Part shown: positions 38,400 to 64,000 of the stretch, in pieces
Layout of the letters: the number at the start of each line of letters is the position of its first letter
Numbering within the stretch: position 1 is the stretch's first letter
Source of the DNA: Candidatus Omnitrophota bacterium
GTDB taxonomy: Bacteria > Omnitrophota > Gorgyraeia > Zapsychrales > JAKLDJ01
Reading direction: 5' to 3'
DNA length: 64,000 nt
Assembly (NCBI GenBank): GCA_022703585.1
Contig: JAKLDJ010000002.1
Span: 91,413 to 155,412, forward strand
Program-made: the position numbers and the translations under genes
Notes under the pieces: generated by a model
What the model was told of the DNA's origin: nothing
Database searches by the model: none
The model's input: only the letters and a program-made list of their open reading frames with translations

Positions 38400-39983
38400 T
38401 TACTGGTGCACCTTATAATCAATCTCAGGGAATATATTGTCTTTTGACTCGATGTCACTCAACCAATAATCATCGACGCTATTGCTCCGGATGCTGTCGT
38501 AAAGATGATTGAATCTTGCCAGGTGTTCCTTGGTACGTTTGATCGCGTAGGGCACATGCGTTCCCGTTCCCATAATAAACGCCCAGTCCGAACTCTGCGC
38601 CAACAGAAGCTCGCGCAAAGCTTGATTCAATGCCCTTCGGGTCAAACCGTTGACATTGGTGCGGCTATGCATCTTGGCCAATTCCGTCATGCGCTCAGAG
38701 GCTTTATGCAGATGCCTGTAAACCCAGTCATTGGACCCCTGCAGCCAAACCTCGCAGTATCCCTTGTATCCCCAGCTGGACATCGATGGGGTAACGACTT
38801 GATTGCGGGGATTTTCTGCCAAATACTCCGAAGGCGTTATCATGCGGATCGTATCTTGGTCAAAATGGATTTTACGAATCAGAAAATCCAGCCACTGCGG
38901 CCCTTCAAACCACCAGTGCCCGTAAAGCTCCGCGTCGTAAGGAGAAACGATCAACGGCTTTTGCTTTAGAAAATCATAAAGGTATTCAACCTGTTGATGA
39001 CGATTAAACAGGAAATTCCCGGCGTGGTCCGCTGCCTTATCCATGGCCATTTTCCGGTTGTAGGGCTGCTTTTCTTCGGTTGGCCCGCTAATCCGGTAAT
39101 ATTTTATCCCGGTATTCACCCGTACTCCGTCGGGAAGAATATAGGGTTTGATATAATCAAAGTCCAAATCATAACCGATATCCCGATAAAATTCGCGGTA
39201 AAGATAGTCACCCGGATAGCCTTCAATAGACGACCAGACTTGCTTCGAGGATTCCAGGTCACGGCCTAAAGCCGCAACACCGGAAGGGCAATACACAGGG
39301 GCAAAGGTTCCGTATTTCGGCCGGGGAGAACCATGCAGGATACCGTGAGCATCCAAAAAGAAAAACTTAATTCCGGCTTCTTTAAGAATCGCATCGCAAC
39401 CCGGGTTATACCCGCACTCCGGAAGCCATATCCCCCGGGGAGGCCTTCCGAAAATATTGCGGTAATGGGATGCGGCCACCTTCACCTGGGCCCGTATCGA
39501 TTCCTGACAGACATCCATGAGAGGAAAAAATCCGTGCGTCGCACCGCAGGTAATGATTTCGACCTTGCCCCGATCCTGGAAATCTTTAAAAGGTACGGTA
39601 AGATTCTTTCCGTAACGCAAAAAGGTGTTTCGTGCGGTTGTAAAGAAATCCAGATACATCTTTGCCAATTCACGAAATTCCGGCTGCCACTGGGTCCGAT
39701 GGACTTCTTTCTCGGCCAATTCAATCAGTTTATTGATGTGCTTCAAGTAGCGGTCCTGCAATAAAGGATCGCAGAACATCGAAAGCAGCGTGGGACTTAA
39801 GGTCATGGTCATGCGAAAATCCACGCCATCGTTGATTAATTTCTCAAAAACAAGAATAAGCGGAATATAGGTCTCAGTAATCGCCTCGTAAAACCAGCTT
39901 TCCTCTAAGAAATTATCATACTCCGGATGCCGGACATACGGAAGGTGACCGTGCAGCACCAAATTCAAATAACCTTTTTCCAT
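38400..39983 (-). CDS. Glycoside hydrolase family 57 protein (probable 1,4-alpha-glucan branching enzyme, DUF1957 C-domain)
   Basis: 527 aa. N-terminal LVLHGHLPYVRHPEY is typical of GH57 branching enzymes. Confidence 0.75.
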   Translation of the reverse strand: MEKGYLNLVLHGHLPYVRHPEYDNFLEESWFYEAITETYIPLILVFEKLINDGVDFRMTMTLSPTLLSMFCDPLLQDRYLKHINKLIELAEKEVHRTQWQPEFRELAKMYLDFFTTARNTFLRYGKNLTVPFKDFQDRGKVEIITCGATHGFFPLMDVCQESIRAQVKVAASHYRNIFGRPPRGIWLPECGYNPGCDAILKEAGIKFFFLDAHGILHGSPRPKYGTFAPVYCPSGVAALGRDLESSKQVWSSIEGYPGDYLYREFYRDIGYDLDFDYIKPYILPDGVRVNTGIKYYRISGPTEEKQPYNRKMAMDKAADHAGNFLFNRHQQVEYLYDFLKQKPLIVSPYDAELYGHWWFEGPQWLDFLIRKIHFDQDTIRMITPSEYLAENPRNQVVTPSMSSWGYKGYCEVWLQGSNDWVYRHLHKASERMTELAKMHSRTNVNGLTRRALNQALRELLLAQSSDWAFIMGTGTHVPYAIKRTKEHLARFNHLYDSIRSNSVDDYWLSDIESKDNIFPEIDYKVHQ

Positions 39984-40049
39984 AAAAAATCCCCCTTTAA
40001 GAAAACCTATCGGATGATCGGAATCTTAATTCCCTAAAATCGCCAGATT

Positions 40050-41105
40050 TTAATGGGTTTCTTTAGAGACGACAGGCGTGATAGACCTATAGTCTTCACC
40101 ATCAGACGACCGAGCTTCGACAGGAATCGTTTGCTTGCCGTCCGGCAAGGCAAACCGCAGCGAAAAAGTTCCGTCTTTCTTTAGCTTGATCGGCTTACCG
40201 CACACGGTGACTTTAGCGTCTGGTTCGGTAGCGCCGTAGACGATAAGCTCCGTGTTAACGACCAGCCAGAATCCCTTTTGCCCCTTGGCCTTGACGTAGA
40301 CCTTGCGGGGGCTGCTGATTGAAAATAGACCCGGAGAACTTATGTGTAGGAGCCTCAGTTTCTCTCGCTTGACCCGTTCAAGCATCCCCTTACCCGTCGG
40401 AGAAGCAGGTCCAAAACCAAAACCCATTCCGTACAAGCGGGTAAAAATCTCGTCCGGAACCATCCATTCTTCATCGGTCATCCAGGATGGACCGTCTAAA
40501 GGCGTCGTAACACTATTGGAACGTGCCAATGCAATAAAACGGCCGTTACGGAGCCTAAAACCGATTTCGACACACCATCCACGACCCGGGCCTCCGGTAT
40601 CAATATACCAACTCTTCGCATCAAAACTAATTTCGATATCAAAATGGCGATGTGCGTTGCGTCCGTTAAAGGTGATAAAGCTCACATCATAAACTCTTAA
40701 GATAGATTGCGCCCCTTCAAACTCAGCCCCCAACCGTTGCTTGGTCTCTTCTATCGTGTGATGCCGTAGTTCCCAATAGGCATGAATCCACCACGGGTCA
40801 CGGACCTGGATAATAATTTTGTCTTCATGATAACGATCGGGCAATTCAGAGGACATCGGACGGCCGGGCTCGAGTTGATAGCCGGTATAAAATTTGGCAG
40901 AAGATACTTCTTGCTGGACAGAATCAACCCCTACTGTCTTTTCAATAGATTTTTCGGATCGGCGCTTCAGGAGGCTGGTAAGGAGGCTGGACTTTCTTCG
41001 TTTTGCGGTCTTCGCGCGCGCAGCAGTTTCTTTTACCGGCGTACGTTTTAAGACTTTCAATAGTGAACTCTTTTTCTTCGCCAAAGAGCTCGTCTTCTTC
41101 TTCAT
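40050..41105 (-). CDS. DUF4912-domain protein with basic low-complexity N-terminus
   Basis: 351 aa. Lys/Ser/Arg-rich first ~60 aa, then a conserved globular domain (IIIQVRDPWWIHAYWEL). This family usually sits next to GH57 genes. Confidence 0.55.
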   Translation of the reverse strand: MKKKTSSLAKKKSSLLKVLKRTPVKETAARAKTAKRRKSSLLTSLLKRRSEKSIEKTVGVDSVQQEVSSAKFYTGYQLEPGRPMSSELPDRYHEDKIIIQVRDPWWIHAYWELRHHTIEETKQRLGAEFEGAQSILRVYDVSFITFNGRNAHRHFDIEISFDAKSWYIDTGGPGRGWCVEIGFRLRNGRFIALARSNSVTTPLDGPSWMTDEEWMVPDEIFTRLYGMGFGFGPASPTGKGMLERVKREKLRLLHISSPGLFSISSPRKVYVKAKGQKGFWLVVNTELIVYGATEPDAKVTVCGKPIKLKKDGTFSLRFALPDGKQTIPVEARSSDGEDYRSITPVVSKETH

Positions 41106-42534: not shown

Positions 42535-43857
<1,323 letters not shown>

Positions 43858-43867
43858 TTAAGCCGTA

Positions 43868-45646
43868 TTATTTCTTATTTGCCGGTACGGTATCTTGAGC
43901 ATCAAGAATACTCAATACTTGTGCCGCTGTTGTTTCTTTGCCGGCACCAAATATCTCCACGTTATCAATAAGAAACAACGGGCCGTAAGAAATATTCATC
44001 TCCTCGGAAAATTTAATCCTTTCCGCCAGCAATTTAGTCCCTTCTTCACCCCGGGCACAATCTTTTATCTTTTTAACATCCATGCCATTGCTCTCCAAGC
44101 AATCTTCCCACCACAGGCTATCAATATTATCCGTGCGGCAAGTAAGATAATCCCGGCTTTTTTCGGGATAGGACGCATCCACACAGGCATAGATTTTGTC
44201 TTCAATTGTTTCCCGGATACCGCCGGGGCTTACGATCTCGTCGGTCTCCGGGTTTTTAGCCCCGACCAGGCGCAAGGTAAATTTTGTTTTGTCTTTTTTC
44301 TGATCCATAATTTCCCTGGCAACCTTAAGAACAGCCGGGGTATCCGGGTGAGACAAAACAATAAATAAATCCAGTTGGCCCGGCTGGGGTGCGCGATTGA
44401 TAAAATAAGAGACACCGGAAAACGACGGTTTTAAATAATACCGGTCCCCGATGAGATCGGCAATCTGGCTAAACCGGGAGAAATTCGGATCTTTTTCCAC
44501 CTGCCGGGAAAGCACGTAGGCGGGAAGCATCTCTACTTTAAATTCATCGATCATTTTCTTAGCTTCGGGATCGTCCGCCGTTAACGATTGCACCTCTAAG
44601 CCCGGAAAGATACTTTTGAGCCCTGCGACCACATAATCCGTCTTGCAGGTGCGGCATTTTTTGGGAACAATCATTGTCATTTTAACATTAACCGCTTCCT
44701 GGAATACGCAGCTGGCAATCTTCTCGCCCGGATTCTGACAAGCCGAACGCACCCCCGGACGCGCACAGTCTTTATCAGAATAACAACGGGGCAGAAGATT
44801 GTTAATCTCGGCATCATCTTCGACGCGATTATCAAGTGCTATTTCCTCAATTGAAGAATGAACGATTGTTCCGTTCTCCAGGCTCAGATTAAGCTTCGCT
44901 AATTCTTTTGCCCCCGACGGCAAAGTCACAATCAAGGTTTCGCCGGTCTTTTCAGATTCCTTGCCTTCCTGCTCCGCGGTCAAATCGATCATAACATTAA
45001 TCCCCGGAATTTGACCGGCTATGATTTTATCTTTCTGCCGGCCAAACGAACTTAAAACAATAATCAAATCGGCTTTTTTGTCTTTCAATTCATTGACGGC
45101 ATTCTTAATGCCCTCAAAGGGATCAGCCGTAAAGGGATCCTGGCCCGGCTGGGTCACGCCGATGACACCGACAGTCAAGTTGCCCGCCTTTTTCTTCAAG
45201 TACGGGCGGGCTCCTTTGATTTTAGTATTGCAAGAAAGAAAAGTTAAATCCATCTTTGAAATCACTTCTTCTAAAAATTTATCACCAAAATTATATTCAT
45301 CCTGCCCGATAACCAGGGCATCGTAATCCATCATTTCCAAGCTTTTCAGATAAACCAGCGTACGTGAAGCATCCAGATTTTGTTCGACTCGATTGATGTC
45401 TTGTTGGGCACCGGCAAAAGAGCTGCCCCCTTCGATCAAGAGGAGATCAGGAAAATCCTTGCGGAGCTGCTTAATCTTTCCCGCTCGACGGGAAACACCG
45501 CCTAAGGGCCCAGCCCCTTCATTAGCCGGATATAGCGCAGCACGCGATCCCGCCGTATAGATAACGGTAATATTTTCAGCATAGGCGCATTGAGAGAAAA
45601 AAGTAATCGCCAATAACAACGTGATAGAAAAAAACCATTTTTTCAT
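43868..45646 (-). CDS. Secreted multidomain protein: degenerate 5'-nucleotidase/metallophosphatase-like domain + Cys-rich linker + DsbA-like thioredoxin-fold C-domain
   Basis: 592 aa. Signal peptide. The N-terminal domain aligns with UshA-type 5'-nucleotidase blocks, but metal ligands are replaced: TAGSR in place of the Asp/His-containing metal-binding block I, IEGGSS for the conserved Asp of block II, GQDEY for GNHE, TAEQ for GHSH. The middle has CxxxxC/CxxC clusters. The C-terminus has a DsbA-like ending (YGPLFLIDN..FGA). Confidence 0.5.
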   Translation of the reverse strand: MKKWFFSITLLLAITFFSQCAYAENITVIYTAGSRAALYPANEGAGPLGGVSRRAGKIKQLRKDFPDLLLIEGGSSFAGAQQDINRVEQNLDASRTLVYLKSLEMMDYDALVIGQDEYNFGDKFLEEVISKMDLTFLSCNTKIKGARPYLKKKAGNLTVGVIGVTQPGQDPFTADPFEGIKNAVNELKDKKADLIIVLSSFGRQKDKIIAGQIPGINVMIDLTAEQEGKESEKTGETLIVTLPSGAKELAKLNLSLENGTIVHSSIEEIALDNRVEDDAEINNLLPRCYSDKDCARPGVRSACQNPGEKIASCVFQEAVNVKMTMIVPKKCRTCKTDYVVAGLKSIFPGLEVQSLTADDPEAKKMIDEFKVEMLPAYVLSRQVEKDPNFSRFSQIADLIGDRYYLKPSFSGVSYFINRAPQPGQLDLFIVLSHPDTPAVLKVAREIMDQKKDKTKFTLRLVGAKNPETDEIVSPGGIRETIEDKIYACVDASYPEKSRDYLTCRTDNIDSLWWEDCLESNGMDVKKIKDCARGEEGTKLLAERIKFSEEMNISYGPLFLIDNVEIFGAGKETTAAQVLSILDAQDTVPANKK

Positions 45647-45666
45647 AGCTTCCTCTCTTTCCCGTC

Positions 45667-46362
45667 CTAGGCAAACATAAACAATAAACCCAGGCCCAGC
45701 CCCAAGAACACCGCAGCGCTGATAATCTTTACTTTTGAAAAATAGATTTTGACAAAATCCGCGGGATTTCTCCCTTTGAGCCCTTTAAGAAGTAAAATAA
45801 GAATAACCGGCAGCGGGATAATTAAAGCCAGGCTATAAAGAGCCACGCCAACAACCGCTTTAAAGATACGCCCCTGTTCAACAAGCATCCCCACCGCGAC
45901 GGGAAAATACGGATACCCTCGCCCCGCAGAACTTAAGATTCCAAAAACAAAACCACCCAAAATCGCGATGAAGAGAACTTTCCCGGGACCGTGGATTCCT
46001 CCGCTTCTCCCAGCCCCTATTTTCAGAAAAATAGATCTTTCACAATCTCCCGTTTTTCGGCAGATAATCCAATCATAAAAATTGAGGATTCCCAGGACAA
46101 CGGCCAGCACACCAAGAAAAGCATGGGCCGTATTGGTTATAACAGAGAAAACCTCCAGATTCCGGAATACCCCAAATGCGCCCCATTCGATCAATAGGGT
46201 CGACAGAAAGATGCCCAAGATAAAAAAGTTTCCAAAGAGCAGGATTTGCCTGCGGGAATAATTAACAAAAAAAATGTAGGCAATAAGATACGCCCATACC
46301 GCGAGGGCACACGGATTAACACTGTCAATTAACCCCGCTAAGAAAATTGTGATAAAATCCAA
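45667..46362 (-). CDS. CcdA/DsbD-family thiol:disulfide transmembrane electron transporter-like protein
   Basis: 231 aa. Six predicted TM segments. LIDSVNPCAL motif in TM1 is typical of CcdA/DsbD cores. Confidence 0.6.
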   Translation of the reverse strand: MDFITIFLAGLIDSVNPCALAVWAYLIAYIFFVNYSRRQILLFGNFFILGIFLSTLLIEWGAFGVFRNLEVFSVITNTAHAFLGVLAVVLGILNFYDWIICRKTGDCERSIFLKIGAGRSGGIHGPGKVLFIAILGGFVFGILSSAGRGYPYFPVAVGMLVEQGRIFKAVVGVALYSLALIIPLPVILILLLKGLKGRNPADFVKIYFSKVKIISAAVFLGLGLGLLFMFA

Positions 46363-46367
46363 CGCTT

Positions 46368-47951
46368 TTAGACCTTAATCAGTTTGACAAACAGGATATC
46401 TTTTGTCTTGCGCAATTTCTCAATCGCCCTTTCGGGAACCTCGGTATCAACATTAACGACGCTAATCGCCATCCCTCCCGGCGTCTCTCGTCCGAAAGTA
46501 ATGCCGGCAACGTTGATATTTTCTTGCGCCAGGACAGTCCCGACGGCCCCGACAATTCCAGGCCTGTCATTATTATTAACAAAAAGCATATACCCCCCGG
46601 GAAAGGCCTCGACATAAACGCTATTGACCTTGACAATACGCGGTTGTTTATTACCCGATAATGTCCCCCATAAGGAGAATGTTTCTTTATCCGTCTTGAT
46701 CTTTAAGTTGATAAGATTAACAAATTCCTCTTCTTCGCTCGAGATAATCTCTTGCACCTTGATTGCCCGTTCTTTGGCCAATTCCAAGGCGTTAATAAAG
46801 TTAACCGTTTCGCCGACAATCGGCCAGAGAAGGCCATAAACCAAAGACATGGTAACCGGCGCCAGTTTATAGCCAGTGATTGCGCCGCTATAGACGATTT
46901 CAATTTCGTTGACACGGCCGTTGACCAGTTGCCCCGCAAACTTGCCCATGCGTTCGGCAAGATTGATGTACGGGCCCAACACCTTGTAACTGGCCGCATC
47001 CACCGTCGGGAAATTCGCCGCGTTAACAATTCCTTTGCCCAATAAGGCATCACGAATCGTATTGGCGATTTCGATGGCAACATTAACCTGCGCCTCGGAA
47101 GTCGATGCGCCCAAATGGGGCGTCACCACGCAGTTTTCAAATTTTAAAAGAGGCAAATCTGCCGGAGGTGGTTCCTGTTCATAAACATCCAGGGCGCAAC
47201 CAGCCACGATTCCCTTTTCCAATGCCCTGGCTAATGCGGCCTCATCAATGATTCCGCCGCGGGCACAATTGACAACACGCACGCCTTTTTTCATAATGGC
47301 AAATTCTTTATCCGAAATGAGGTGCTTGGTCTCGCTGCTCTTTGGCGTATGGACGGTGATATAATCCGCCTGCCGGAATATCTGATCCAGTTCGGCCATT
47401 TCAATTTCCATTTTTGCGGCGACTTCCATGGAGATGTACGGATCAAAGGCCAAGATTTTCATGCCGAAACTTCTGGCAAACTTTGCCACCGTCGAGCCGA
47501 TACGGCCCAGGCCGATAATCCCTAATGTCTTTCCGTAAAGCTCAACACCCATAAACTTGTTGCGCTCCCACTTGCCGGCCTTAAGGGCACCGTGCGACTG
47601 AGGGATATTGCGAGACATCGACAAGATAAGGCTCATGGTATGCTCTGCCGTCGAAGTAGTATTGCCGGCAGGCGTATTCATCGCAACGATTCCTTTCTTT
47701 GTGGCGGCCGGTAAATCGACGTTGTCTAAGCCCACTCCGGCGCGGCCGATAAACTTTAATTTATCAGCGGCCGCGATGATATCAGCGGTAACTGTGGTCC
47801 CGCTGCGGATGATCAAGGCATCATAATCTTTGATGATGCTTTTAAGCTCATCGGGCTTGATGCCGTATTTGCAGTCCACCTGAAAATCTTTAACATCTTT
47901 AAGTATTTTTACCCCTTCTTCGGCTAATTTATCGCTAATTAGAATTTTCAT
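46368..47951 (-). CDS. serA: D-3-phosphoglycerate dehydrogenase (long form with ASB and ACT domains)
   Basis: 527 aa. NAD-binding GxGxxG (GLGRIGS), catalytic R/E/H, and a C-terminal ACT domain. Confidence 0.9.
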   Translation of the reverse strand: MKILISDKLAEEGVKILKDVKDFQVDCKYGIKPDELKSIIKDYDALIIRSGTTVTADIIAAADKLKFIGRAGVGLDNVDLPAATKKGIVAMNTPAGNTTSTAEHTMSLILSMSRNIPQSHGALKAGKWERNKFMGVELYGKTLGIIGLGRIGSTVAKFARSFGMKILAFDPYISMEVAAKMEIEMAELDQIFRQADYITVHTPKSSETKHLISDKEFAIMKKGVRVVNCARGGIIDEAALARALEKGIVAGCALDVYEQEPPPADLPLLKFENCVVTPHLGASTSEAQVNVAIEIANTIRDALLGKGIVNAANFPTVDAASYKVLGPYINLAERMGKFAGQLVNGRVNEIEIVYSGAITGYKLAPVTMSLVYGLLWPIVGETVNFINALELAKERAIKVQEIISSEEEEFVNLINLKIKTDKETFSLWGTLSGNKQPRIVKVNSVYVEAFPGGYMLFVNNNDRPGIVGAVGTVLAQENINVAGITFGRETPGGMAISVVNVDTEVPERAIEKLRKTKDILFVKLIKV

Positions 47952-63482: not shown

Positions 63483-64000
63483 ATTCTTTCAGTATGCGTT
63501 TGTAAAAATCGGCGGTTTTTACCGCCATTTCTTCAGCGGAGAAATTCCTTTCAATAAATTGCCGGGCATTACGCCCGAGCTCTTTTGCTTTTGGTAAATC
63601 CGATAACAGCCGCATGATCCCCTGCTCAAGCTCGTCAACATTTCCCGGAGAAACAAGAATGCCGGTCTTATTTTCTTCAATTAAGCTCGGGATACCGCCC
63701 ACCCGCGAGCCGACAACCGGCAGATTCATCGCCTGCGCCTCCATGACCGAGAGCCCCAGGCCTTCCTGCAATGACGGCATCACAAAGACATCCATTAAAG
63801 AGAGCATGGCAGCGGTTTTATTGACAATGGGATAAAAACGAATCTGTTCTGTAAGGCCCAGGTCATTCACTTGGCCCTTAAGGGCACCTTCCATTTTTCC
63901 TTCGCCGACAATTAAAAGCAATGCCGAAGGGATTTTTGAAATAATTTTCTTCATGGCAGAAATTAAAATGCTGTGCCCCTTGACATCCGAAAGCCTGGCA
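63460..64000 (-). CDS. Glycosyltransferase family 1 (GT4-type, retaining), C-terminal part; the N-terminus lies beyond the window end
   Basis: The EGLGLSVMEAQAMNLPVVGSRVGGIPSLI region is the E-x7-E motif of GT1/GT4. The reading frame stays open to coordinate 64000. Confidence 0.75.
   Translation of the reverse strand, partial: ARLSDVKGHSILISAMKKIISKIPSALLLIVGEGKMEGALKGQVNDLGLTEQIRFYPIVNKTAAMLSLMDVFVMPSLQEGLGLSVMEAQAMNLPVVGSRVGGIPSLIEENKTGILVSPGNVDELEQGIMRLLSDLPKAKELGRNARQFIERNFSAEEMAVKTADFYKRILKEYEENSRR

Follow-up and report, generated by a model that had tools for sequence, protein, structure and literature searches.

We analyzed a stretch of 64,000 nucleotides (nt) from Candidatus Omnitrophota bacterium (GenBank assembly GCA_022703585.1, contig JAKLDJ010000002.1, positions 91,413 to 155,412), referred to below as the window, in which two adjacent genes encode a membrane protein of 231 amino acids (aa) and a secreted multidomain protein of 592 aa (Table 1). 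All genes of the region are located on the minus strand and are transcribed in the order aminotransferase gene, serA, 231-aa gene, 592-aa gene, purA, OmpA-like gene. The 20-nt gap between the two genes agrees with an earlier note made from the sequence of the window; that note placed the membrane protein gene downstream, but by transcription it is upstream of the 592-aa gene. The latter has a good ribosome-binding site, with the Shine-Dalgarno sequence GGAAAGAGAGG ahead of the start codon. The databases contain an identical 592-aa protein, annotated as hypothetical, from a metagenome-assembled genome (MAG) of Candidatus Omnitrophota, and a Pfam scan gave no matches for either the 592-aa or the 231-aa protein.

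The 592-aa protein starts with a Sec signal peptide; lipidation at Cys20 was also considered and was rejected because the sequence FSQC is not a lipobox. The signal peptide is followed by a domain (N-domain below) whose homology to 5'-nucleotidases is well above chance. Its best NCBIfam match is UshA_like_PCGU (NF041198, E 2e-28), the second one is SoxB (E 8e-17), and several models of 2',3'-cyclic-nucleotide phosphodiesterases/nucleotidases match as well. In PDB sequences, phmmer identified CD73 (E 1.6e-9). A Foldseek search with the AlphaFold2 model of the protein, built from a 15-sequence alignment (mean predicted local distance difference test score, pLDDT, 85), returned CD73, UshA and the Thermus thermophilus 5'-nucleotidase (E 7e-19, about 305 columns), and the calcineurin-like alpha/beta sandwich is present. 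The window protein thus shares with UshA and CD73 the fold of residues 24-280 and the motifs in a block-for-block alignment, as the earlier note had proposed, but, unlike them, it lacks the seven metal ligands and the C-terminal substrate domain. In the CD73 alignment all ligands of the dimetal site are replaced (D36 by G, H38 by R, D85 by S, N117 by Q, H118 by D, H220 by S and H243 by T), which agrees with the substitutions that the note had read from the sequence; no Pfam match to the substrate domain (5_nucleotid_C, PF02872) was found in the protein, the C-terminal half of which consists of thioredoxin (Trx)-like and DsbA-like units. The motifs of the dimetal site (DxH, GD, GNH(E/D), H and GH) are degenerate in the entire family, orthologues included, and phosphoesterase activity of the N-domain is not expected.

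A word-indexed search found only 15 relatives of the 592-aa protein, all from Omnitrophota, and a pattern scan covering one genome per GTDB species yielded 66 loci, all in Omnitrophota or in MAGs labelled as Planctomycetes. The 66 loci have a fixed housekeeping array: aminotransferase, serA, the gene of interest, an HMGL-like synthase (in most loci), purA and an OmpA-like gene. Loci L007, L016, L027, L036 and L037 and other MAGs with this Omnitrophota-specific array are titled "uncultured Planctomycetales/Planctomycetia bacterium" (third-party annotation assemblies), which is probably a taxonomic mislabelling. In the family alignment of 65 sequences, the second position of motif I is occupied by His in 56 sequences, and five residues past it lies the motif C-x-C-P-x-x-P-x-G-G, with the first Cys present in 61 and the second one in 60 of the 65 sequences. 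In the window protein the His position is Arg35, and the C-x-C site reads A-N-E. The closest relative (P0002, 83% identical to the window protein) also has Arg instead of His, and S-D-E instead of C-x-C; among full-length members, only these two proteins have lost both His and CxC. Variants of the motif were seen in two other proteins, in which CxC is changed to CxxC at the same position of the loop (C-G-S-C-P in L033 and C-P-T-C-P in P0104).

UshA-like proteins are a catalogued family of CxU selenoproteins (COG0737; Zhang & Gladyshev 2008, PMC2398784; PMC13188914), for which the available portions of both sources give no function. The CxU/CxC motif of this family, which follows metallophosphatase motif I, is the one missing from the window protein. 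The latter scores 99.2 bits against NF041198, under the curated cutoff of 275 bits, and covers profile positions 4-281 of 519. Another protein, P0016, passes the cutoff (287 bits) and is a bona fide member of the UshA-like (seleno)protein family; its motif is N-C-G-C-P-E-Q-P-L-G, so that C-x-C-P-x-x-P-x-G is common to P0016 and the Omnitrophota orthologues. C-terminally of the motif, P0016 has a multihaem cytochrome domain and then a LysM domain. The window protein and members of NF041198 have in common a 5'-nucleotidase/metallophosphatase fold at the N-terminus, its dimetal site being degenerate; the remaining part consists of the four-Cys, Trx-like and DsbA-like segments in the window protein and is multihaem or other in NF041198 members. 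Since the orthologues keep His and CxC and the window copy has lost both, the N-domain of the latter would be more than a dead phosphatase: the domain appears to have been converted to a new use, centred on a pair of cysteines, before it was inactivated in the window copy. The earlier note regarded the N-domain as a non-catalytic binding scaffold. This may hold for the window copy but not for the family, where the near-invariant His and CxC, lost specifically in the window, suggest that the N-domain is not merely an inert pseudoenzyme scaffold.

The C-terminal half of the 592-aa protein contains three further segments (Table 1). In the first of them, residues C288, C294, C303 and C313 are invariant in 65 of 65 members. 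It is predicted to form a short helix and a beta-hairpin packed onto the following domain, and its cysteines probably make two structural disulfides, a pairing that we infer. The second segment is Trx/glutaredoxin (Grx)-like. The full model has strand 321-327, then C331/C334 and helix 337-346, and later L374-P375 and strand 376-380; the order of elements in the models is strand, C331-R-T-C334, helix, strand, helix, L374-P375 and strand, as expected for a Trx-like unit (beta-alpha-beta-alpha-beta-beta, CxxC at the start of helix 1 and a cis-Pro loop ahead of beta 3). A separate model of residues 277-592 had pLDDT 89. Both C331 and C334 are kept in 63 of 65 members, and Leu374-Pro375, at the cis-Pro position, is invariant. 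When a profile of 44 sequences of this segment was compared with PDB, almost all matches were thioredoxins, the two-unit protein disulfide oxidoreductase PfPDO and a Grx-like protein (E 1e-3 to 1e-2), with both CxxC and LP in register. Thus the cysteine cluster described in the earlier note is real, but CRTC, which the note had included in the linker, belongs to a separate Trx-like domain. In two family members, L034 and L049, CxxC of the Trx-like domain is replaced by SLAA and SRIA, respectively, and the UshA-like CxC is kept, a mirror image of the loss in the window.

For the third segment, residues 421-585, the structures matched by Foldseek were those of mouse GILT and of many DsbA proteins (E 9e-8 to 1e-5, target template modelling scores 0.6-0.7, about 0.65), and sub-threshold Pfam DSBA matches were seen in the orthologues. 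The Trx fold with a helical insertion is present, which bears out the DsbA-like C-terminal thioredoxin fold of the earlier note. The active-site CxxC of DsbA is absent: CPHC of DsbA corresponds to SHPD in the window protein, and none of the 65 members has Cys at these columns. The cysteines C488, C503, C516 and C530 of the helical insert are invariant. Hence, of the two features for which the note proposed to inspect a structural model, the metal ligands are indeed missing, as the CD73 alignment shows, and a CxxC site exists in the Trx-like but not in the DsbA-like domain. Both a metallophosphatase fold and thioredoxin/DsbA folds were found, so that the absence of these folds, set beforehand as the refuting observation, does not apply. 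The window protein has parallels with DsbA, GILT and PfPDO (1A8L): its last domain adopts a DsbA fold that includes a helical insertion, its two Trx-fold units are arranged in tandem as in PfPDO, and the protein is periplasmic and rich in structural cysteines. It differs from all three in that the DsbA-fold unit has no CxxC, the sole CxxC (CRTC) being in the preceding small Trx-like unit, and in that the CxxC dipeptide is not conserved among its orthologues. DsbA-like units of two relatives in which this unit is fused to a membrane protein, P0041 and P0083, have a single Cys at the active-site position (CPFA and CPYG, respectively), seen in no member of the Omnitrophota family, a possible sign that the Cys-less DsbA-fold domain descends from a monothiol one.

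The 231-aa protein has six hydrophobic segments, with a K/R-rich loop between transmembrane segments (TM) 3 and 4. When 1.84 billion cluster representatives were searched exhaustively with phmmer, 1423 relatives were obtained at E<=1e-3, and 109 proteins among the best of these were used for counts of domains and cysteines. Pfam DsbD_TM (PF02683) or DsbD_2 matched seven of the 109 (best E 5.8e-9). Other domains in this set were DUF1573 (17 proteins), five Pfam models of the Trx/Grx family (three to seven proteins each) and Metallophos (two proteins). In NCBIfam the TM module resembles ArsG only, and weakly (E 2e-4 down to 6e-6); a search of the ArsG literature gave nothing usable on its fold. 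The consensus of the family contains AGLxDGxNPCAF in TM1 and ExxCTGQxYLPT in TM4, and hhalign aligned the family with the beta domain of Escherichia coli DsbD over 210 columns (E 1.6e-4, probability 50%), placing the two consensus cysteines on DsbD C163 and C285. When the TM-family profiles were compared with PDB sequences, CcdA and DsbD chains were not among the matches, which came from the fused Grx/Trx-like parts or were spurious (G protein-coupled receptors and cytochromes).

The window protein keeps the first of the two cysteines as Cys18 in N16-P17-C18, aligned with T-P-C163 of DsbD, and has Gly147 in place of the second one. Two relatives, P0019 and P0020, also lack the TM4 Cys. Two other cysteines, Cys101 and Cys107, are in the presumably cytoplasmic 3-4 loop and are not both conserved in P0019. 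The family shares with DsbD and CcdA a predicted topology of six TM, the Pro-Cys motif of TM1 and cysteines corresponding to C163 and C285, and, as in DsbD, relatives are fused to a periplasmic Ig-like DUF1573 domain (compare nDsbD) and to Trx/Grx-like domains (compare cDsbD). It differs in its strong divergence (DGxNPCAF in TM1, CTGQxYLP in TM4), most members having no Pfam DsbD_TM match, and the window member differs further in lacking the TM4 Cys and any periplasmic domain. CcdA and DsbD are defined by a pair of cysteines, one in TM1 and the other in TM4. On its sequence, the 231-aa protein would be a standalone, Cys-depleted member of a family distantly related to the DsbD/CcdA superfamily and, having one Cys of the pair, would not be a functional CcdA/DsbD protein. 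The earlier note described it as a CcdA/DsbD core with the NPC motif; the motif is there, together with six predicted TM and a probable distant homology, but the second catalytic Cys is not. The protein presumably cannot relay electrons by the CcdA/DsbD mechanism because both the TM4 Cys and the periplasmic DUF1573 domain with its CxC, which its adjacent counterparts elsewhere possess (see below), are missing, and the delivery of reducing equivalents across the membrane, which the note assigned to it, is not upheld.

The two families occur together outside the window. A membrane protein gene lies between serA and the 592-aa-type gene in four of the 66 genome loci (L002, L007, L028 and L033; the serA flank is visible in 62), and the same adjacency is seen in two metagenome loci, L070 and L116. 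In the four genome loci, the membrane proteins have 380-390 aa; their signal peptide is followed by a DUF1573 domain, whose CxC is of the SCGC type, and by a six-TM core in which both cysteines are present. DUF1573 (PF07610) corresponds to the OS_HP2 selenoprotein family (NF041425) with the UxC motif. This domain is part of the adjacent membrane proteins in the four loci and is encoded by a separate downstream gene in most loci of the TM family; it is absent both from the 231-aa protein and from the surrounding 64-kilobase (kb) window, a weak match at 63519-63680 being rejected as a shadow open reading frame inside a glycosyltransferase gene.

Moreover, the modules are fused. Four proteins (P0114, L089, L103 and L104) combine UshA-like (CxC), Grx-like (CxxC) and TM modules; two (P0104 and L137) combine UshA-like, DUF1573, Grx-like and TM modules; and P0038 consists of DUF1573, TM, Trx (CLVC) and DsbA-like modules, its C-terminal half being the same as that of the window protein. 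The DsbA-like unit is attached to a TM protein in P0041, P0052, P0083 and P0148, and in the two of them whose sequences were read (P0041 and P0083) a Grx-like unit is present as well. Outside Omnitrophota, a gene for a TlpA/AhpC-like thioredoxin with WCIPC (L152:1914-2498) overlaps the stop codon of the P0016 gene, a further case of a UshA-like protein paired with a thiol oxidoreductase. These adjacencies and fusions, the former having been set in advance as a test of the pair, suggest that the UshA-like and TM families are functionally linked at the family level. The dedicated extracytoplasmic thiol-redox module proposed in the earlier note is partly supported; the window appears to hold a degenerate remnant of such a module rather than an intact dedicated relay.

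The commonest layout in 80 metagenome loci is a Grx-like-TM protein gene followed by a separate DUF1573 gene, with genes for an HtpX-like protease, lysS and a LolC-like protein being common downstream. In 29 of the 80 loci (L071-L148; for example, L087:1711-2691) the gene following [Grx-like-TM][DUF1573] encodes an HtpX-like M48 metalloprotease with HELSH, and in a subset of these 29 loci lysS and a LolC/E-like permease gene follow in turn, which probably reflects the conserved gene order of a single lineage.

A search with the C-terminal half of the window protein found 13 clusters of short forms (328-383 aa) lacking the whole N-domain. They are 44-55% identical to the window protein and closer to it than any full-length form except P0002. 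In a rough neighbour-joining tree of the C-terminal half, the window protein and P0002 are placed beside the short forms, and this group is near L007, one of the loci with an adjacent membrane protein gene. In the three short-form contexts examined, the gene for the short form follows serA and precedes purA, and a membrane protein gene is absent. Three states are thus observed: the full one, with DUF1573-TM (both cysteines) and UshA-like (His, CxC)-4Cys-Trx (CxxC)-DsbA-like proteins; that of the window, with a TM protein (one Cys, no DUF1573) and UshA-like (no His, no CxC)-4Cys-Trx-DsbA-like; and the short one, with 4Cys-Trx-DsbA-like only and no TM gene. The UshA-like CxC, DUF1573 and the TM4 Cys are lost together, whereas the Trx CxxC and the DsbA-like unit persist, which suggests, from few lineages, that there are two functional units.

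We also calculated the ratio of nonsynonymous to synonymous substitution rates (dN/dS) between the window and the syntenic contig of P0002 (L068), a single pair of sequences with dS of 0.46-1.0, values of about 0.6-1.0 being near saturation. The ratio is 0.10 for the entire 592-aa gene (0.115 for the N-domain, 0.10 for the 4Cys and Trx segments and 0.05 for the DsbA-like domain) and 0.17 for the membrane protein gene, compared with 0.02-0.09 for flanking genes. Hence both genes are under purifying selection, weaker than that on their neighbors, and are not pseudogenes.

Taken together, these observations lead us to propose, with a probability of roughly 0.5, that the gene pair is the reduced form of an extracytoplasmic, modular thiol-redox system, conserved in Omnitrophota and occurring elsewhere, and that this reduced copy is a periplasmic oxidoreductase with CRTC only. 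The membrane part of the full form would be a six-TM protein of the DsbD superfamily with one Cys in TM1 and one in TM4 and with a periplasmic DUF1573 (CxC) or Grx-like (CxxC) domain; the periplasmic part would consist of the UshA-like domain, with His and CxC in the former dimetal pocket, the four-Cys segment, the Trx-like CxxC domain and the Cys-less DsbA fold. By analogy with DsbD, electrons may flow from the cytoplasm via the TM Cys pair to the DUF1573 or Grx-like carrier and on to the UshA-like CxC and/or the Trx CxxC, a direction that we infer. In the lineage of the window, with the TM4 Cys, DUF1573 and the UshA-like His and CxC gone, this relay would be broken. CRTC would then be the only redox-active site of a putative periplasmic thiol-disulfide oxidoreductase acting on envelope proteins or small thiols, the DsbA-fold and dead 5'-nucleotidase domains may serve as substrate-binding or scaffold surfaces, and the single-Cys membrane protein may be a partner outside the relay, for example, an anchor or a transporter.

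Several observations weigh against this proposal. Adjacency of the two genes is the exception, being found in a minority of loci (four of 66), and most of the 80 metagenome loci probably come from a single lineage, given their shared downstream genes, so that they are not independent counts. The TM family is distantly homologous to DsbD, with an hhalign probability of 50% and no Pfam match for the window protein. The evidence that residues 317-420 are Trx-like consists of a predicted topology and of profile matches with marginal E-values (1e-3 to 1e-2), and an hhalign comparison of this segment with a Grx-like set and with DsbD gamma fell short of significance, although CxxC and LP were lined up. 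The CxxC dipeptide varies among orthologues (CRTC, CVVC, CSSC, CLGC and others), which is unusual for a tuned oxidoreductase, and CxxC is missing in two of the 65 members. The selection analysis relies on the one near-saturated pair.

Three other explanations were considered. The relay could be intact and dedicated, the membrane protein feeding CRTC, perhaps through Cys18 together with a second Cys in trans, provided by a dimer or by Cys101/Cys107 of the loop. The adjacency of the genes on one strand with a 20-nt gap, the retained NPC Cys of TM1, purifying selection on both genes and the fusions of the TM module with Trx/Grx-like CxxC domains elsewhere in the family would all fit such a relay. 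We nevertheless find it improbable: the position aligned with DsbD C285 is Gly in the window and Cys in 99 of 109 relatives; Cys101 and Cys107 are in the K/R-rich, presumably cytoplasmic loop, and position 101 is Tyr in the 71%-identical P0019; and CRTC is retained in the short-form sister lineages, which have no membrane protein gene next to it, so CRTC does not seem to depend on this partner. Alternatively, the N-domain and the membrane protein gene could be functionless relics that precede deletion, only the C-terminal half (four Cys, Trx and DsbA-like) being of importance. Both parts are in fact deleted in the sister lineages and evolve fastest in the neighborhood, with identities of 71% for the membrane protein and 82% for the N-domain compared with 90-97% for flanking genes; yet dN/dS of 0.17 and 0.115 are far below neutrality, and both reading frames are intact in two genomes separated by dS of about 0.9, which makes the relic explanation doubtful.

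Finally, the conserved His, the CxC and the Asp/Glu that occupy what was the dimetal pocket could form a new site for a metal or chalcogen (for example, Cu, Hg, Se or sulfur species) rather than a dithiol redox center, in which case the family would handle a periplasmic metal, metalloid or sulfur compound and the window copy would have given this activity up. The His is five residues before CxC, and both are in the loop after metallophosphatase motif I, beside the retained D116/E117. The second-best NCBIfam match of the N-domain, SoxB, is a thiosulfohydrolase; the sole similarity of the TM module, ArsG (weak, as given above), is an organoarsenical efflux permease; and selenocysteine-containing forms are known for both DUF1573 and UshA-like proteins. 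The partners of the domain, on the other hand, are classical thiol-redox modules (Grx-like, TlpA-like and DsbD-like), and we regard a metal or chalcogen site as rather unlikely. The reduced thiol-redox system thus remains the preferred explanation.

Periplasmic thiol-redox pathways of the textbook type are DsbA/B, DsbC/D and CcdA/ResA. To our knowledge, no such pathway has been characterised in Omnitrophota or in many other uncultured lineages. The components described here are of known kinds, and the family of the N-domain is already present in NCBIfam and in selenoproteome surveys. Neither the UshA-like-4Cys-Trx-DsbA-like architecture nor the NPCAF/CTGQ membrane family, nor an association of the two, was described in the literature that our search found, in agreement with the earlier note, which did not recognise the architecture as a described system, and all database entries for these proteins read "hypothetical protein". 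Fusion and adjacency link four modules annotated as hypothetical or of unknown function: UshA-like CxC/CxU, DUF1573, Grx/Trx/DsbA-like and the divergent DsbD-like core. Tentatively, and with less confidence than we place in the reduced copy itself, they may make up an undescribed periplasmic pathway, in which a DsbD-like conduit (NPCAF, CTGQ) would pass electrons to DUF1573 (CxC/UxC) and Grx-like (CxxC) carriers and these to an UshA-like terminal enzyme, a metallophosphatase fold repurposed as a Cys/selenocysteine redox or chalcogen-handling catalyst. If so, this would be the first functional context for two orphan selenoprotein families, UshA-like and OS_HP2/DUF1573, for which a testable hypothesis is now available, and the window would represent a step in a natural dismantling of the pathway. 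The natural series of intact, Cys-depleted and deleted forms suggests which parts depend on each other. The meaning of the window itself is more modest: a reduced, probably single-site periplasmic oxidoreductase with a membrane partner that would no longer act as a relay.

Table 1. Positions of the gene pair, its encoded features and the flanking genes in the window.
Feature	Position	Strand	Basis or remark
231-aa membrane protein gene	45667-46362	-	TTG start, 5 nt past the serA stop codon
Cys18 codon (TM1 N-P-C motif)	46309-46311	-	aligned with DsbD T-P-C163; kept in the window
Gly147 codon (TM4 catalytic Cys position, DsbD C285)	45922-45924	-	Cys in 99/109 relatives
592-aa secreted multidomain protein gene, stop codon included	43868-45646	-	ATG start
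Sec signal peptide, residues 1-23 (MKK...SQCAYA/EN)	45578-45646	-	read from sequence; N-terminal helix in model
UshA/5'-nucleotidase-fold N-domain, residues 24-280	44807-45577	-	NCBIfam, phmmer, Foldseek
Residues 41-43 (A-N-E), site of C-x-C in orthologues	45518-45526	-	family alignment
Four-Cys segment, residues 286-316 (C288, C294, C303, C313)	44699-44791	-	family alignment and predicted structure
Trx/Grx-like domain, residues 317-420	44387-44698	-	model topology; profile against PDB
CRTC active-site motif (C331, C334)	44645-44656	-	N-terminus of helix 1 of the Trx-like domain
DsbA/GILT-fold domain, residues 421-585	43892-44386	-	Foldseek; sub-threshold Pfam DSBA in orthologues
serA	46368-47951	-	directly 5' of the 231-aa membrane protein gene
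purA	42535-43806	-	3' of the 592-aa gene

We also asked whether the pair is functionally linked to its neighbors serA, purA and the cimA-like gene; this was rejected, the arrangement being conserved housekeeping synteny. In most Omnitrophota loci, an HMGL-like/homocitrate-synthase-like gene (about 411 aa; PF00682, E 4e-50; for example, L001:7733-8968 and L007:7718-8962) lies between the 592-aa-type gene and purA. It is absent from the window (43807-43867), from the 83%-identical relative and from the short-form lineages, so that its loss is one more that occurred in this clade. Located 3' of the OmpA-like gene (38400-41105, minus strand) and unrelated to the pair are genes for a GH57 branching-enzyme-like protein and a DUF4912 protein, syntenic with those of the 83%-identical relative. 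Throughout the window (1-64000) GC skew is below zero in each 2-kb interval, with the cumulative skew going steadily down to -3.87, and every gene examined between 37.6 and 52.5 kb is on the minus strand, as would fit a single replichore that is read against the leading strand.

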